Below, one piece after another: positions 162-40,883 of a DNA stretch of 40,883 bases. The position numbers and the translations under genes were made by a program. The notes under the pieces are model-generated. The model was not told the origin of the DNA. It saw nothing but the letters and a program-made list of their open reading frames with translations, and searched no databases. Source of the stretch: a virus. Position 1 is the stretch's first letter. The number at the start of each line of letters is the position of its first letter. The DNA lies in IMG/VR virus record IMGVR_UViG_3300031414_000050, positions 1 through 40,883 of that record; one strand, 5' to 3'.

Positions 162-802
162 GCCGCCTCCCGGAAGGCCATGAACAGATCGATCTTCGCC
201 TGCACCTGCGCCAGGAACGACAGCACGTCCTTTTCCAGCTGCGCGATGTAGGCTTCGTCGCGCTCGATGCGCTGGCGGTACAGCTTCAGGTGCTCGGCGC
301 CGGTTTGCATGCGCGGGTCGTAGGAACAGAAGTCGATCCAGTCCAGGCCCAGCACCCACATCTGACCCTGCACCTGCGGCGTGTGATGCTCGGGCATGCC
401 GGTTTCCCAGGTCAGCAGGTGGATCGCGCTGTTGTGCGGGCACTTGATCTCGATGCCGCCCTTCTCGCCCACCAGGCCGTCAGACGACGCGCCGATCCAG
501 GCGTGCACCGGGTGCTTCTTGAAGCCGACCTCGCGCACCGTGGCGCCGGTCTCGACCTCATAGGCGGAGCGGGCATACGGCTCGGCCTCGGTGCCCCACT
601 GCATGGCGAAGCTGCTGGGCGTCTGCACAGGCTCGCCGGTGATGCGCTCGACCACCAGGCGCATCAGGTAGTCCTCGCGCGCCTTCAGCGGCTGGCCGTT
701 GCGGCCGGTGGCCAGGATGTCAGCGAAGCAGGACGCGGTGGCGTGGCCGGCGCGATCACGGAGCCAGTCGGTGCCGCCTTGGTTGGACAGTCGCTCAAGC
801 AT
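158..802 (-). CDS. exo: YqaJ/lambda-Exo family recombination exonuclease
   Basis: The ORF is 158-817. I chose the ATG at 802 because GGAGGTG lies 6 nt upstream. It has the SSDGL...GGIEIKCP nuclease motif and YDPRM, and it follows bet as in lambda. Confidence 0.85.
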   Translation of the reverse strand: MLERLSNQGGTDWLRDRAGHATASCFADILATGRNGQPLKAREDYLMRLVVERITGEPVQTPSSFAMQWGTEAEPYARSAYEVETGATVREVGFKKHPVHAWIGASSDGLVGEKGGIEIKCPHNSAIHLLTWETGMPEHHTPQVQGQMWVLGLDWIDFCSYDPRMQTGAEHLKLYRQRIERDEAYIAQLEKDVLSFLAQVQAKIDLFMAFREAA

Positions 803-1553
803 TCGGCACCTCCGCATCGATGACCATTTCGGCGCGCTTCTTCAGGCTCGGCAGGTGCGACGCCAGCGCGCGGCGCTGATCCTTCGTCAGGCGGCTCCAC
901 GATTCCTCAAGCGCGGCCAGCCCGGTGTCGGCAACCGCCTCGAGGTCGGCCAGCAGCCTCTCGTCGGCTTCGGTGAATTCGACGGTCATGGCCTGCTCGG
1001 CGACGGCGGCGGCGCCCTGGCGCGTTGGGCGGGCGTTGATGTCCACCTCGGCGATGCGTTCGGCCTCGTCCTGGTCGTAGATGCCCACGTAGCCAAACGC
1101 CAAGCGCGCGCACTGGATCATGGCCTTGTGGCGCAGCATCCGCTTGGGGTGCGTCTGCCACGGCTTCACGCCGCGCTTGCACTCGCTCAGGTACTCCGTG
1201 ACGCGCGTCGGATGGCTGCGGTCCTTGCGGAAGATGATGCAGGTGCACTTCTCTTCGTCCTGCTCGAAGTCCATGCCGTCGAACATCGCGTTCTCGTTGA
1301 TGATGCGCGACCAGCCGTCGACGCCCACCACCGGCACGATGCCGTTGTTCTGGTCCGGGAAGGCGTAAATCTCCTTCGTCCAGGGGTTCAGGCGGTATTG
1401 GTTCGCCACGATCAGCAGCGCGGACATTTGCGCGTCCGACACCTGGCCCTTGAATGCGGTCGCCTTCAGGACGTTGACCAGGTCCCCGGTCTCCGGAATG
1501 TTGAACAGGCCGGCCAGTTTCGACGCCTGCTGGACTACGAGTGCGGTGGACAT
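795..1553 (-). CDS. bet: Lambda Bet (Red-beta) family single-strand annealing protein
   Basis: Long blocks match lambda Bet as I remember it: LLIVANQY.LNPWTKEIYAFPD, NGIVPVVGVDGWSRIINEN and HPKRMLRHKAMIQCARLAFG. Confidence 0.92.
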   Translation of the reverse strand: MSTALVVQQASKLAGLFNIPETGDLVNVLKATAFKGQVSDAQMSALLIVANQYRLNPWTKEIYAFPDQNNGIVPVVGVDGWSRIINENAMFDGMDFEQDEEKCTCIIFRKDRSHPTRVTEYLSECKRGVKPWQTHPKRMLRHKAMIQCARLAFGYVGIYDQDEAERIAEVDINARPTRQGAAAVAEQAMTVEFTEADERLLADLEAVADTGLAALEESWSRLTKDQRRALASHLPSLKKRAEMVIDAEVPNA

Positions 1554-1706
1554 CTTGTTTCCTTTCTGCCGAGACTGTGCCGGCGTGGTTTGTGAGTGCT
1601 GCGGATTAGAAGCCGTGGCGGTACAGGCTGATAGCGCGGGTCAGCGCATGGCGGCGGCCGAAACCTACGCGGCAGCCGAAGCGGTATTGGTAGACGAGGA
1701 AGCGGA

Positions 1707-1841
1707 TCACGGCAGCACCTGCATGCTCAGGACCATGGCGCCGTCGTCGTAGGCCGCGTCCATCAGGGTGTCGCAATCGCCAGTCTCGATACGGGTGTGC
1801 GGCGTGCCGGCTGCGTCTTTGAAGGTGATGCGGAAGGTCAT
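1707..1841 (-). CDS. Hypothetical small protein (44 aa)
   Basis: An internal ATG of ORF 1707-2102 is preceded by GAGGAGCAGAGC. The sequence upstream of it is AT-richer and looks non-coding. Confidence 0.5.
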   Translation of the reverse strand: MTFRITFKDAAGTPHTRIETGDCDTLMDAAYDDGAMVLSMQVLP

Positions 1842-3594: not shown

Positions 3595-4337
3595 ATATGC
3601 GTACTTTCTTTGCGAATTACTTTGCCGATGACAATGCACTCGGCGCCCTTGCACATCTGTCTGTGGTATTTCCGCTGGTCTGGATTGTCTGAAGCGAGCC
3701 ACCACTGGCCGGCATCGCGCAGCATCCGCTTTACCACTGCCTCGCCCTCGTAATTGATCACGTAGACAGCGCCCGAAACCATCTTCCTGTCGGCCGTGTT
3801 CACCACGACCGTGTCGCCGTCGTACAGGCTCGGCTCCATGCTATCGCCGCGGACGACGATGGAAATCAGCGAACCCTTGTTCAGGCCTTCGCGCTGAATC
3901 CAGTTCGTCGGGACGCCATGAGTCTCGCCCTCGTAATGTTCGGGCTCAACCTGGAAGCCGGTAATGCCTGCTTGCACCCTCAGCTTCACCTTCATGATCT
4001 GCGTCATGGTCGGGTCATCCTGATCGGACGCATGTATGCGCCTGGCGCCTGGCGGCAAAGGCGGCAAGTCGTCATTTGCGGGCTGCGCAGCTGGCTCCTG
4101 GAACAGGTGCGACCGATCCATCCACCCATCAGGCTCGCCGAGCGCGGCCTCGATCCGGCGCGCCATAGCGTCCCCCATCATCTTCGGCGTACCCGTCTTG
4201 CTGTCGGGCGTGCGGTTTCTGATCTGGCTCAAATACGCTGGAGAGGTATTTGCCGCCTCAGCCAGCTTGGCGGCCGATCCGAAGCGCTTGATCGCGACCT
4301 CAAGATTCTCCCGCCGAATTTCATCGTTTGTTTGCAT
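3591..4337 (-). CDS. cI: CI-type prophage repressor (N-terminal HTH plus C-terminal S24/LexA-like autopeptidase)
   Basis: The HTH reads AKLAEAANTSPAYLSQIRN. The S24 motifs are VVRGDSMEP (Ser) and EAVVKRM (Lys). I chose the start at 4337 because the longer ORF (to 4433) would run across the operators and the cro start. Confidence 0.88.
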   Translation of the reverse strand: MQTNDEIRRENLEVAIKRFGSAAKLAEAANTSPAYLSQIRNRTPDSKTGTPKMMGDAMARRIEAALGEPDGWMDRSHLFQEPAAQPANDDLPPLPPGARRIHASDQDDPTMTQIMKVKLRVQAGITGFQVEPEHYEGETHGVPTNWIQREGLNKGSLISIVVRGDSMEPSLYDGDTVVVNTADRKMVSGAVYVINYEGEAVVKRMLRDAGQWWLASDNPDQRKYHRQMCKGAECIVIGKVIRKESTHI

Positions 4338-31563: not shown

Positions 31564-32027
31564 TGCCGCCCTCCGCTTTCATCGGCATGCTCGCTGGCGC
31601 GGCGCAGGAGTGCATGCGCCGAACCGGGATTCCTGCCTCTATCACCCTGGCCCAGGCCGCACTGGAATCCGGCTGGGGCGCCCGCGCGCTCGGCAACAAC
31701 CTGTTCGGCATCAAGGCTGACAAGAGCTGGACCGGCCCGACCGTCAGCTTCGCTACGACCGAGCACCTGGACGGACGCAACGTGCACCTGACGGACAAGT
31801 TCCGGAAGTACGACAGCTACGTCGAGAGCATGGTCGACCACGGCCGATTCCTGCTGGCGAACCCGCGATACCGGGAATGCTTCAAGGAGACGACCGGAAT
31901 GGGCTGGGCGACCGCGCTGCAGAAGGCCGGCTACGCCACCGATCCGGAATACGCCAAGAAGCTACAGGCAACGATCCGCGTGCGCAATCTGCAGTTCTAC
32001 GACCAACTGACGCCGGGGGCGAAATGA
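31563..32027 (+). CDS. Endolysin, GH73/FlgJ-type N-acetylglucosaminidase
   Basis: It contains ITLAQAALESGWG...NNLFGIK...YATDPEYA. The start overlaps the holin stop. Confidence 0.9.
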   Translation: MPPSAFIGMLAGAAQECMRRTGIPASITLAQAALESGWGARALGNNLFGIKADKSWTGPTVSFATTEHLDGRNVHLTDKFRKYDSYVESMVDHGRFLLANPRYRECFKETTGMGWATALQKAGYATDPEYAKKLQATIRVRNLQFYDQLTPGAK

Positions 32028-32530
32028 GTGCGCTCGAGCGACTGCTGGTCGCTACCCTGGTGCTGGCCGCCATGGCCGCCGGCGGCTGGTTCGCCTTGGA
32101 GCACTACGGCGCCGAGCGCTACCAGGCCGGCCATGATGCCGCAGTCGCAGCCGGCGAACTACTGCGCCAGGCCGAGGCCGAGCGCAACCACGAAACCGAG
32201 TCGGACCTGCGCGCCCAGCTGCACGACAAAGACGCCGACGCCTTCAAAAAGGAACAGGAATATGCCGAGAACCTCGACGATGCTCAGCGCCGCGTGCGCG
32301 CTGGCACTGACCGCCTGCGCTGCCCCGCAGCCAGCCCCGTACCTGCCGGCGCCGCGCCCGGTGATCGACCCGCTGCCGGCGGACCTGCAGCTGACGGAGA
32401 AGGACCTGCAATGGTGCCCGACGTTTCTGCGGATCTTCTCAGCCTCGTCGCAGACCATCAACGACTTGTGCAGCGATACGCCCGCGTCGTCGAACGCTTC
32501 GAAGCCTGCCGTGCCGTGAACGCGAAGTGA
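32024..32530 (+). CDS. Rz: i-spanin (Rz-like)
   Basis: It has an N-terminal TM (LLVATLVLAAMAAGGWFAL) and a charged coiled-coil periplasmic domain. It is ATGA-coupled to the endolysin. Confidence 0.8.
   Translation: MSALERLLVATLVLAAMAAGGWFALEHYGAERYQAGHDAAVAAGELLRQAEAERNHETESDLRAQLHDKDADAFKKEQEYAENLDDAQRRVRAGTDRLRCPAASPVPAGAAPGDRPAAGGPAADGEGPAMVPDVSADLLSLVADHQRLVQRYARVVERFEACRAVNAK
32262..32519 (+). CDS. Rz1: o-spanin lipoprotein (Rz1-like), fully embedded in the +1 frame of Rz
   Basis: The lipobox is in MLSAACALALTAC, and the mature part is Pro-rich. AGGAA precedes the ATG at 32262. Confidence 0.75.
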   Translation: MPRTSTMLSAACALALTACAAPQPAPYLPAPRPVIDPLPADLQLTEKDLQWCPTFLRIFSASSQTINDLCSDTPASSNASKPAVP

Positions 32531-32643
32531 TGGACATCCACCTGCTCACCCCGCAGGGCGATCAGCTGGTGGTGCAGGTGGTGGACGGAGAGGTGGTTGT
32601 GCCGCCCGCCGCCGCGCCGGATCAGCCAGAACCCGGCAAGTAA
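32530..32643 (+). CDS. Candidate micro-protein (37 aa) coupled to Rz
   Basis: I translated it by hand as MDIHLLTPQGDQLVVQVVDGEVVVPPAAAPDQPEPGK. About 32 of 37 codons end in G or C, and the ATG shares one base with the Rz stop. Confidence 0.35.
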   Translation: MDIHLLTPQGDQLVVQVVDGEVVVPPAAAPDQPEPGK

Positions 32644-32767
32644 GCGCGAACCCGGCGCCGCGCGCAGTAAGGAAGGCGGCAGCGCGCTGGGCGCCCTTGG
32701 ACTCGGCCAGCAGCAGGGCCAGGTCGACGGCGATGGCGAGGTCGGAATTATTGCGGTCGGTGGTCAT
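32546..32767 (-). CDS. Hypothetical small protein at the attP-proximal end (73 aa from ATG 32767; ORF open to 32845)
   Basis: Third-position GC is high from 32767 down to about 32644. The tail converges on and overlaps the plus-strand micro-ORF. No clear RBS is seen. Confidence 0.45.
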   Translation of the reverse strand: MTTDRNNSDLAIAVDLALLLAESKGAQRAAAFLTARGAGFALTCRVLADPARRRAAQPPLRPPPAPPADRPAG

Positions 32768-32936
32768 GCCGACATGGTGACGCATGTCCGCAAGTAGACT
32801 GACGAGATAGCGCAAAAGGCTTTCCGCAAAACGCCCCGAGGTCATCCATTTTCATAGGGCGGTCGTGGCGGCTTAAATGCCTCTTTTGCGGAACGAATTT
32901 TGAGGTCAAGCCGTTGATTTTTAACGACTTGCTTTT

Positions 32937-32978
32937 AGATTTTAAGTCTGATGCGTCTACCAATTTCGCCATGCCCGC
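32937..32978 (-). tRNA. Partial tRNA only: 5' half of a tRNA-Leu(UAA), from acceptor 5' strand to anticodon loop (not a complete gene)
   Basis: The minus strand reads GCGGGCA-TG-GCG-AAATTGGTAGA-CGC-A-TCAGA-CTTAAAA-TCT. This parallels E. coli leuZ as I recall it element by element. No T-arm or 3' acceptor strand follows. Confidence 0.6.
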
Positions 32979-32988
32979 GCCGGCCCGG

Positions 32989-33016
32989 ATTATAGCACTG
33001 GTGCGGCGTTTAGCAA
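32989..33016 (-). promoter_or_regulatory. Near-consensus sigma70 promoter reading into the tRNA fragment: TTGCTA-16 nt-TGcTATAAT
   Basis: The -35 is at 33016-33011 and the extended -10 at 32997-32989. The first tRNA base (32978) lies 10 nt after the -10. Confidence 0.6.
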
Positions 33017-33067
33017 TTTGGCTCTGCCTTACGCTTTTCCGCAATCGCAAAGCCTTTCCGCAAAATT

Positions 33068-34180
33068 CTATTTCGTGGGCTTTACCAGCTTGCCTTTGCG
33101 GTGCCGGACGTACTGGCGCGTCATGGTCGGCGTCGTGTGTCCGAGCTGCTCCTGGGCCGCGGCCATGCCGGCCGATTCGTCCTTGTCCGTCGCCGCTTTC
33201 GCGCGCAGATCCCGGAACTGGAATTCCTTGATGCGTTCGGCTAGGTCGGGCCGCGCGGCGGCGGCAACGGCGCGCGCACGGTCCATTGCGCCGCGCATCA
33301 TGAACTTCGTCATCGGCGTCCCGTCTGGCATGTTGATCAGGCCGAGCCCCATCACTTTGCGCTGCGCCATGCGTTCGAGCAGCGCTGCGAGCTCGCCCTC
33401 GATGGCGATGCGGAGCTTGTGCTTGGTCTTGCTCTGTCGGAGCCACAGCGCCCCTTCCTTGACGTCGGCGCGCGTGAGCTTCAGCACGTCCGCCGGCCGC
33501 TGCCCAGTCAGGTAGGCCAGGTCGAGCGCATCCTTGAGGGGCGGCTCAGCGGCGTCGTGTACGGCCTGATAGACATCATCCTCGATGTAGACGTCGCGCC
33601 CATCTTCCTCGTGCCCCTTGATACCCGCGCACGGGTTGGCCTTGTTGGTCAATCCCTCGTTGCGCGCGAAATTCCAGATGTGCGACAGCAGCGCCTTCTC
33701 GCGGTTCGCGCTCACGTGCCCAAGGTCTGGCGGCACCGGCTGCAACGGCTTCTTCTCGCGTGCACGCTGCCTGTTTGCCTCGACTGCCTTTTCCTTCGTC
33801 ATCCGCACGCGCCAGTCCAGGTACTGCCGCACGTGCATAGGTTCGATCTTGTCCAGCGGGATCGGCGGCTTGTCGAAGAACTGGTACAACACCTCCAGCT
33901 CACGCAGGTTATTTTTTTGCGTCCCTGGGGCCTTCCCTGGCAGCACTTCGCGCATGTAGCGCTCGGCCGCGTGCCGGAGCGTGATCGCGGCGGCGGCCGG
34001 CACCGCGCTTACTGTCAGCTCCGCCCACTTCTGCACTGCGGCCACGTAATCATCGACCGCGAGCGGCACCTCCCGGCGCGGCCGCCCGCCCAGGTCGAGC
34101 AGATAATAGGTCCGCCCTCCCCTGACGCGCGCGCGCATCCCCTTCGGCAGGTTCAAGTTTTTCGTTGGCCTGCGGCCCAT
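33068..34180 (-). CDS. int: Tyrosine integrase
   Basis: The catalytic signature reads LTGQRPADV (Arg), RDLRAK, LGHTT (His) and MTRQYVR (Tyr). It has an N-terminal arm-binding-type domain and is adjacent to attP. Confidence 0.95.
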   Translation of the reverse strand: MGRRPTKNLNLPKGMRARVRGGRTYYLLDLGGRPRREVPLAVDDYVAAVQKWAELTVSAVPAAAAITLRHAAERYMREVLPGKAPGTQKNNLRELEVLYQFFDKPPIPLDKIEPMHVRQYLDWRVRMTKEKAVEANRQRAREKKPLQPVPPDLGHVSANREKALLSHIWNFARNEGLTNKANPCAGIKGHEEDGRDVYIEDDVYQAVHDAAEPPLKDALDLAYLTGQRPADVLKLTRADVKEGALWLRQSKTKHKLRIAIEGELAALLERMAQRKVMGLGLINMPDGTPMTKFMMRGAMDRARAVAAAARPDLAERIKEFQFRDLRAKAATDKDESAGMAAAQEQLGHTTPTMTRQYVRHRKGKLVKPTK

Positions 34181-34183
34181 ACA

Positions 34184-34399
34184 TCATCCCTTCCGTAATA
34201 CGTCCGGCACCCATACCTTCTCGGGTGGTTTTGCCGTCTTCACCCGCCCCTCGATCGCCGCGCGCGGGACAATCGGGCGCCCGACTGCATTGGTGAAGAA
34301 CGGAATGCCCTGCGCGCGCAACTGGTCCGCCTGCAGTGCGTGCTTAGTGCGCCCCGTCAGCTCGCGCACTTCTTCCGCTGCCAAAAATGTATCCGACAT
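34184..34399 (-). CDS. xis: Excisionase-like DUF4224 protein
   Basis: It contains FLAAEEVRELTGRTKHALQADQLRAQGIPFF and lies immediately upstream of int. Confidence 0.78.
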   Translation of the reverse strand: MSDTFLAAEEVRELTGRTKHALQADQLRAQGIPFFTNAVGRPIVPRAAIEGRVKTAKPPEKVWVPDVLRKG

Positions 34400-40455: not shown

Positions 40456-40883
40456 TTATAGGAAGCCCATCAGGCGGTCGATCACGCCGTCCAGGTCGTC
40501 GCGGGTGTAGTTGGTCAGGATGCGCGCCAGGATCGCGTTCGCCACGCTGTTGTAGACGTCTTCGAACTCGATCTGGTCCATGTTCGCGAAGCTGATCGAT
40601 TTGGCCGTCACGCGCGTCTCGCCGCGCAGGTTCACTGCCATCTCGTAGTGGCCAGCGATGCACAGGATGTCGTTCCTGAACTGGTCGAAGTTCTTGCCGA
40701 CGACTTGGCCCTTGAAGGTCGCCACAGCAGGCTCCCATGCGTCAAAGGCAAGATTCAGCAGCGCGAAGAACTTGCGGTGGAAGGCCGGGTTCCGGTGCCG
40801 CTTGATCGCCGCGGTGACGCCCTGCCCCAACTTCAACTTGCTGATGAACTCGACCGCCTGCGGATCAACCGGGATCAGCGCGC
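40456..40883 (-). CDS. DUF1367-like phage protein, main part (its 5' end is at 161-1 across the circular junction)
   Basis: It contains NPAFHRKFFALLNLAFDAWEP...FDQFRNDILCIAGHYE. The frame stays open to the window end and continues at bases 128-161. Confidence 0.78.
   Translation of the reverse strand, partial: ALIPVDPQAVEFISKLKLGQGVTAAIKRHRNPAFHRKFFALLNLAFDAWEPAVATFKGQVVGKNFDQFRNDILCIAGHYEMAVNLRGETRVTAKSISFANMDQIEFEDVYNSVANAILARILTNYTRDDLDGVIDRLMGFL
40757..40883. repeat. Terminal direct repeat, copy 2 (identical to 1-127)
   Basis: Base-by-base comparison gives 127/127 identity. The repeat lies inside a coding sequence, which argues for an assembly overlap rather than a packaging end. Confidence 0.97.

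Follow-up and report, generated by a model that had tools for sequence, protein, structure and literature searches.

Genes and sequence features between the lysis block and the integrase

The window, by which we mean the whole stretch of 40,883 nt analysed here, is a temperate phage genome with a G+C content of about 63%. Its termini carry an exact direct repeat of 127 nt (positions 1-127 are identical to 40757-40883), which indicates that the window is a circular assembly with a 40,756-bp unit and that its attachment site is genuine. The plus-strand late/lysis block stops at 32530 and contains, according to inspection of the translations, a glucosaminidase-type endolysin plus an Rz/Rz1-like gene pair. 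The last late gene (31877-32530, plus strand) is Rz-type spanin-like, and an ORF in the +1 frame inside it (32028-32519, plus strand) has a lipoprotein-like signal (...LALTAC...), as in Rz1; Pfam gave no match for this pair. Further along, the minus strand encodes a tyrosine integrase (33068-34180, 370 aa; PF00589, E = 1e-13, residues 203-362; PHROG 1, "integrase") and, directly upstream of int, an excisionase of the DUF4224 type (34184-34399, minus strand, 71 aa; PHROG 8896, "excisionase", E = 4.7e-17). Orthologues of this xis gene with PF13986 are found upstream of int in the relatives L004, L005, L147, L149 and L153. Since the att site lies between the plus-strand late/lysis block and the minus-strand int-xis block, we regard it as the attP of a phage genome in its excised or virion form.

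Downstream of attP, on the int strand, is a small conserved gene of 73 aa (32546-32767, minus strand), for which neither Pfam nor PHROG gave a match. The original prediction had placed this gene opposite one of the integration junctions, and it appears to be real insofar as it has 10 conserved homologues. The 55-aa core common to them begins at the Met of 32767; a plus-strand ORF (32597-32797) and a longer version of 99 aa starting at 32845 were dropped, because the homologues have the Met at 32767 in common.

The integrase has 2889 homologues at E <= 1e-30, of which the close ones are nearly all metagenomic; the best match in 185,579 species-representative genomes shows 66% identity. Megablast searches of GenBank phages, with the int-att region and with 25 kb of the window, returned no useful relative. 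The close relatives used below are metagenome assemblies throughout, except for one fragment labelled as an IMG isolate genome (L136). Distant int relatives come mostly from Oxalobacteraceae and other Burkholderiales, and point to a G+C-rich betaproteobacterium as the probable host.

On the minus strand, the attachment region (32815-33067) presents the arm-type sites P1 and P2, a predicted promoter, a 10-nt leader, nt 1-42 of a tRNA-Leu(UAA) gene, an IHF consensus and the arm-type sites P'1 and P'2, in that order. Hereafter, attachment sites supplying the promoter and 5' part of a tRNA gene are called mirrored, and those supplying the 3' part canonical. The arm-type motif TTGCGGAA is present in 7 copies in the window versus 1.8 expected, a number reached in 0 of 100 shuffles. 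Four copies, the predicted arm-type sites, fall inside 242 bp at positions kept in 8 relatives, and they surround the core as had been anticipated. P1 (33063-33056, minus strand) is embedded in TTTTGCGGAAAGG, is kept in all eight mirrored attP sites as well as in the canonical ones, and precedes P2 by 19 nt; P2 (33044-33037, minus strand) stands 98 nt ahead of the anticodon loop (98-102 nt in relatives). P'1 (32893-32886), identified by the motif scan and in relatives, is inverted with respect to P1 and P2, lying on the plus strand with the minus strand reading TTCCGCAA, and P'2 (32829-32822, minus strand) starts 64 nt after the P'1 start. Together with the catalytic domain of a tyrosine recombinase and the excisionase, these repeats on either side of the core are the hallmarks of a lambda-type (heterobivalent) integrase system.

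Between the core and P'1, the sequence AATCAACGGCTTG (32907-32919, minus strand) matches the IHF consensus WATCAANNNNTTR perfectly and, by this consensus match, is a candidate H' site. Its start is found 27 nt after the loop start, and P'1 starts 26 nt further on, in 8/8 attP sites compared. A 5-7-bp inverted repeat brackets the IHF consensus in each attP (32930-32904, minus strand, in the window; also L117, L013, L149 and L151). It reads CAAGTCG/CGGCTTG in the window, CCTAAGT/ACTTAGG in L013 and GCCAAGT/ACTTGGC in L149 and L151, so that pairing is kept with different sequences and a register that is shifted between members; RNAalifold detected no structure in common across the attP sites at this repeat.

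The predicted promoter on the P arm (32989-33016, minus strand) was located by a consensus scan and consists of the -35 element TTGCTA (33016-33011), a 16-nt spacer and the extended -10 element TGcTATAAT (32997-32989), just as originally read. It is the sole sigma-70-like site in 32300-33300, agreeing with the consensus at 10/12 positions plus the TG, with 0.1 sites expected from shuffles. The same scan detected the element in L004 and L120, and no such site on the canonical attP of L147. The sequence TGCTATAAT is invariant in 8/8 clade members (see below), and the stretch GAAACCCGCnCCAG before it is nearly unchanged. Both TGCTATAAT and its 10-nt distance to tRNA position 1 persist across host tRNA types, and the spacer from P2 to the -35 varies; in L149 and L151 the -35 is weak.

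Between the -10 and tRNA position 1 is a G+C-rich leader/discriminator of 10 nt, CCGGGCCGGC (32979-32988, minus strand), which is the same as the host's own leader. In Massilia-type hosts, the native tRNA-Leu(UAA) promoter is TGTGCTAGAAT, followed by a 10-nt leader. The phage promoter would thus resemble a host tRNA-Leu promoter that was captured and underwent one change towards the consensus. In window-type hosts, the native promoters GTAGTACAAT fall short of the scan threshold; hence the phage copy is nearer the consensus and would, as a predicted element, be a better match than the host's. No exact copy of a 37-mer that runs from the phage promoter into the tRNA start was found in 185,579 species-representative genomes.

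Beginning ten nt past the -10, positions 32978-32937 (minus strand) read GCGGGCATGGCGAAATTGGTAGACGCATCAGACTTAAAATCT and constitute the 5' part of a tRNA-Leu(UAA): the acceptor 5' strand, the D arm, the anticodon stem 5' strand, the loop and 3 nt of the 3' strand. One prediction was that a host tRNA-Leu should match this fragment, and we found 42/42 identity with the ARAGORN-called tRNA-Leu(taa) genes of L001 and L004. The tRNA likeness ends after TCT, also in agreement with the earlier reading: the host goes on with GCCGCCGTGAGG... and the phage with AAAAGCAAG.... With regard to the rest of a tRNA, the absence of a T arm and of a 3' acceptor was borne out by ARAGORN, which called 0 tRNA genes over the whole window; yet the Rfam tRNA model (RF00005) gave a borderline full-length match at 32978-32901 (29.9 bits versus a gathering score of 29). 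The 3' part of this match has a 5-bp stem, an 11-nt loop, an acceptor stem pairing at 5/7 positions and no T loop. It coincides with the IHF consensus that is kept in canonical relatives without the 5' half, which argues against its being a T arm. A genuine T arm or tRNA-like 3' half was therefore rejected, the stem being the IHF consensus of canonical attP sites and RNAalifold finding no common structure.

Host tRNA-Leu(UAA) genes contain odd pairs, namely T27/C43 in the window type (L004, 5203-5287) and G1/U72 in the type beginning GCGGCCA (L010/L011). As these are present in the attL and attR copies of the 5' half alike, they are native features and not hybrid artefacts. In L001, another tyrosine integrase (220-1635, plus strand, 471 aa, PF00589) abuts the tRNA-Leu(taa) gene (1639-1723, minus strand) at its 3' end in a canonical layout, so that on the 3' side tRNA-Leu(UAA) seems to serve a different element as well. 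In the L001 gene, 5' half and promoter are native, and its 3' end may have been supplied by the element encoding the 471-aa integrase.

Both junction types occur in related prophages

The original prediction held that integration rebuilds a hybrid tRNA next to int and orphans the host promoter and 5' half at the other junction, and junctions of both types were found. The attR of predicted form, with a complete tRNA on the int strand, is present on three independent contigs (L004, L120 and L136), in which the int stop is followed by two arm sites, TTGnnn-16-TGcTATAAT, a complete tRNA-Leu(taa) and host DNA. L004 is a 159-kb ENA contig (int identity 91%) in which the int stop and a pair of arm sites are followed by TTGGCG-16-TGcTATAAT, the complete tRNA-Leu(taa) of 85 nt and host genes. 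L120 and L117 are the two ends of one 54,286-bp contig (IMGVR_UViG_3300031414_000028; int identity 90%), with attR at the L120 end and attL at the L117 end, and L136 has int identity of 90%. The attL, in which host-type upstream sequence is followed by the same 5' half and by a phage P' arm, was found in L002 and L117; in the latter, the P' arm is homologous to that of the window.

L002 and L003/L008 belong to a 39,296-bp contig with 100% int identity that opens with attL and closes in attP form, indicating that integrated and free forms coexisted in the sample. For the window's own phage, attL alone was seen directly, and attR is known from relatives. A metagenome scan for the core-P' junction yielded just the two contigs already known, and a scan of viral contigs with the L010-type tRNA 5' half yielded mostly unrelated complete phage tRNA genes. 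The slot between P'2 and the lysis gene end is variable (L117, 240-480, compared with 32546-32820 of the window): in the 54-kb prophage, the sequence there is unrelated to the small gene of the window and apparently encodes a gene on the opposite strand.

Comparison of attP with attL delimits an identity block of 55 bp (32991-32937), to which a block of 57 bp corresponds in the 54-kb prophage. The block begins inside the -10 hexamer, which is TAtAAT in the phage and TAcAAT in the host, and ends 3 nt past the anticodon loop. Because the identity runs through the tRNA 5' part, the mature tRNA sequence is unaltered by integration, and only the promoter part upstream of -10 position 3 is exchanged.

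The mirrored layout probably has a single origin within one integrase family

We compared 80 relatives from species-representative genomes, with 46-66% int identity and hosts including Massilia, Duganella, Herbaspirillum, Nitrosomonas, Gallionella and Pandoraea. In about 40 of the 80, a tRNA gene (Leu-taa, Leu-caa, Lys, Met, Asn, Phe or Thr) lies 60-230 nt past int. These int-adjacent tRNA genes are on the opposite strand throughout, bar one unrelated fragment case (L074). The notion of a mirror image is therefore well founded: in the sister element L005 (78% int identity) and in the roughly 40 distant relatives, the tRNA is on the opposite strand and turns its 3' end towards int. L005, the closest outgroup, is canonical and sits at tRNA-Leu(taa), and canonical attP sites (L013, L017 and L147) contain a reverse-complemented tRNA 3' half, from the CCA end to the anticodon loop. 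L005, L013, L017 and L147 thus supply the 3' part, and the element of the window supplies the promoter and 5' part instead. In the canonical L147, a homologue of the small gene occupies the same place after attP. L074 (Nitrosospira, 49% identity) was considered as a second mirrored case and rejected, having a tRNA-Asn 3' fragment only and a different layout. In this third layout (4062-4235), the fragment lies at the int-proximal junction, on the int strand, and past int the arm-type motif is inverted.

The scaffold of arm and IHF sites is the same in both kinds of attP. Measured from start to start, in mirrored and canonical sites alike, P1 and P2 are separated by 19 nt, P2 and the loop by 98-102 nt, the loop and the IHF consensus by 27 nt, the IHF consensus and P'1 by 26 nt, and P'1 and P'2 by 62-64 nt. 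Right of the loop, the sequences of both kinds are homologous (TCCGAAGCC is found in both L153 and L013), and the left half-site is the same in both because the anticodon stem is palindromic. The two kinds differ in the loop, which reads CTTAAAA in one and TTTTAAG in the other, and in the filler of about 95 nt between P2 and the loop, which is either the promoter plus 5' half or the reverse-complemented 3' half.

The mirrored cassette was found in eight elements (the window, L004, L009, L010/L120, L011/L136, L153, L148/L149 and L151/L152). Their leader and 5' half come in three versions, starting GCGGGCA, GCGGCCA and GCCCGGA, the last of which agrees with the Massilia tRNA of L019 in its 5' part. 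Neighbour-joining places the eight mirrored integrases in one clade (80-93% mutual identity) with L005 as sister and the other canonical members outside, a topology that suggests a single origin of the mirrored form. In L148/L149 (2355-2640) and L151/L152 (int identity 82-84%), the att cassette as a whole lies the other way round with respect to int, so that P'2 is beside the int stop, and the small gene is absent; the polarity of the core with respect to the arms is still mirrored. The att cassette seems to behave as an invertible module.

Proposed integration pathway and comparison with known systems

The above findings suggest that 32815-33067 is an attP that a lambda-type Int recombines with the host tRNA-Leu(UAA) gene at the anticodon loop, and whose P arm restores the promoter and 5' half; we put the probability of this reading at roughly 85%. 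According to our model, the integrase would bind the four arm-type TTGCGGAA sites (P1, P2, the inverted P'1 and P'2) and the anticodon stem in its two halves, IHF would introduce a bend at the site 27 nt from the loop, and strands would be exchanged inside the 7-bp loop CTTAAAA (32946-32940, minus strand) of the host gene, this loop being inverted relative to the arm scaffold in the mirrored clade. The P arm would carry what the host copy loses, that is, a tRNA-type promoter, the 10-nt leader and nt 1-42, and so keep the gene working. Once joined to the host 3' half, it would yield an attR with int, P1, P2, the phage promoter and a complete tRNA of unchanged sequence, and the attL would consist of the host promoter, the orphaned 5' half, the IHF site, P'1, P'2 and the small gene (32767-32546). 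Excision would proceed via the adjacent excisionase, and the promoter would have been acquired by capture from a host tRNA-Leu gene.

Where the strands are exchanged deserves separate consideration, since the comparison of sequences confines the crossover to the 55-bp identity block (32991-32937), and an exchange elsewhere in it (D arm, acceptor stem or leader) would leave the layout as described. We consider this improbable. The loop plus 3 nt per side is the sole part common to the mirrored and canonical identity blocks, which is why we place the crossover there, with CTTAAAA as the presumed 7-bp overlap. In both kinds of attP, moreover, the loop stands at a fixed distance from every arm and IHF site. 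Tyrosine integrases use inverted core half-sites, and the palindromic anticodon stem provides such half-sites. A second possibility, to which we assign a similarly low probability, is that the -35/-10 is a silent remnant of captured host DNA and that read-through, coming from int or a different prophage promoter, accounts for transcription of the tRNA. It draws on the position of int, which ends about 50 nt upstream on the same strand with no terminator-like site between, and on the weak -35 of L149 and L151. Most temperate phages keep int low in lysogens, so that a tRNA that is probably essential would be poorly served by read-through. A silent remnant would also sit badly with the finding that TGCTATAAT and its 10-nt distance to the tRNA are invariant in 8/8 members even after a switch of host tRNA type, with a variable spacer from P2 to the -35. 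A contribution of read-through from int to transcription of the tRNA could nonetheless exist alongside an active promoter.

Two further explanations concern the nature of the fragment itself. That 32978-32901 is a complete, if unusual, phage tRNA or tRNA-like gene could be argued from the full-length RF00005 match (29.9 bits for a gathering score of 29). Such a gene would, however, have escaped ARAGORN, and it would have an 11-nt loop in place of a T loop, 5/7 acceptor pairs and no long variable arm, which a tRNA-Leu requires. Its supposed 3' half is the IHF site plus P' arm, found at the same position in canonical relatives without the 5' half, and RNAalifold gives no common structure there; we therefore judge this very unlikely. 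Least probable of all, and only marginally credible, is that the fragment is host DNA from one faulty excision or an assembly chimera with no role in integration. Chimeras are a concern insofar as the close relatives are all metagenome assemblies; yet eight or more separate elements, taken from different samples and matched to three variants of the host tRNA, share the architecture, both junction types were found, and the 127-nt terminal overlap suggests an assembly k-mer longer than the 55-bp repeat.

Under the preferred reading, in which the P arm restores the promoter and 5' half, the phage-borne promoter and front half of the gene mean that the prophage appears to take over transcription of tRNA-Leu(UAA), and in lysogens of mirrored phages the expression of a rare-codon tRNA would be under phage control. 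UUA is very rare in these G+C-rich genomes, and the rebuilt tRNA gene is probably its sole decoder. Placing this gene under the phage promoter would be comparable to bldA in Streptomyces. In the phage, TTA makes up about 1% of Leu codons, with about 9 TTA in 9,740 codons of a crude gene set, and a special need of the phage for UUA is unsupported by these counts. A TTA codon in xis (the Leu of ...PDVLRKG) is found at the same position in the window, L149, L151 and L153; it is absent from L004, and the canonical L005 has TTG there. As the codon is kept in most clade members and is decoded by the tRNA that the prophage rebuilds, excision could depend on a tRNA that the prophage controls; shared ancestry alone could also explain its conservation. 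It is conceivable, though we hold it to be doubtful, that integration rewires two transcription units, with tRNA-Leu(UAA) placed under the phage promoter and the displaced host promoter driving the small gene in lysogens only.

According to textbooks, an element that integrates into a tRNA gene brings the 3' part and thereby leaves the gene under the host promoter. The mirrored clade represents the opposite solution in ordinary temperate phages of Burkholderiales-like hosts, whose sister elements are still canonical. That the arm/IHF scaffold is unchanged and only the 7-bp overlap inverted argues that the overlap alone sets the polarity with which a palindromic anticodon stem-loop is entered. 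A phage could then switch which half of the gene it carries by capturing a promoter and 5' half, and the mirrored and canonical elements offer a natural experiment for comparison. On the practical side, island- and prophage-finding programs that look only for 3' fragments downstream of tRNA genes will misplace the ends of mirrored prophages.

Canonical integration into the anticodon loop by lambda-type tyrosine integrases is typified by P22, HP1 and many mycobacteriophages. Like these, the system described here has a tyrosine integrase, arm-type sites flanking the core on either side, an IHF consensus and a neighbouring excisionase; its identity block stops at the anticodon loop, one junction holds an intact tRNA and the other a fragment, and canonical members exist within the same integrase family at 46-78% identity. 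Unlike them, the element brings the promoter, leader and 5' part and not the 3' part, and the rebuilt tRNA is on the int strand with the host promoter orphaned. The usual rule is that the common core includes the tRNA 3' half and that the tRNA is rebuilt at one junction (PMC10865867). In the tRNA-dependent lysogeny of mycobacteriophages, by contrast, the short core leaves the tRNA unrestored, and a complete phage tRNA gene of the same isotype makes up for it (PMC10865867). In both situations, the insertion affects the anticodon region of a tRNA gene, and where that gene is essential and single-copy the phage has to compensate; unlike in tRNA-dependent lysogeny, the window contains no tRNA gene according to ARAGORN, and the host gene is rebuilt from the phage 5' half at attR.

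Replacement of the front of a target gene is known from dusA-specific integrases, whose islands replace the dusA 5' end and bring putative -35 and -10 elements (PMC4482086). As in those islands, the 5' end and promoter of the target are replaced here and the original 5' end is left behind; the dusA islands differ in having a protein-coding target, a different integrase family and no symmetric stem-loop core. The Islander algorithm explicitly permits a 5' fragment upstream of the tRNA gene (PMC4383910), and an attP with a tRNA 5' part has already been reported in pelagiphages of the HTVC021P/109P type (bioRxiv 10.1101/410191). Such an attP is rare but not unprecedented. In a limited literature search, we found no description of a conserved promoter within a tRNA-restoring attP, of a flip traceable on an unchanged arm scaffold within one integrase family, or of the mirrored integrase clade reported here.

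The pelagiphages are a close parallel. Downstream of int they, too, carry the 5' part of a tRNA, the junction next to int is where the tRNA is restored, and their targets include tRNA-Leu(TAA), as here (bioRxiv 10.1101/410191). They are T7-like podoviruses of SAR11, their paper mentions no promoter, and several of their rebuilt tRNAs have base changes (bioRxiv 10.1101/410191), whereas the mature tRNA here is unchanged. What sets the present elements apart from the pelagiphages is the conserved predicted promoter within attP, together with a flip that one integrase family allows to be followed while the arm scaffold stays the same.
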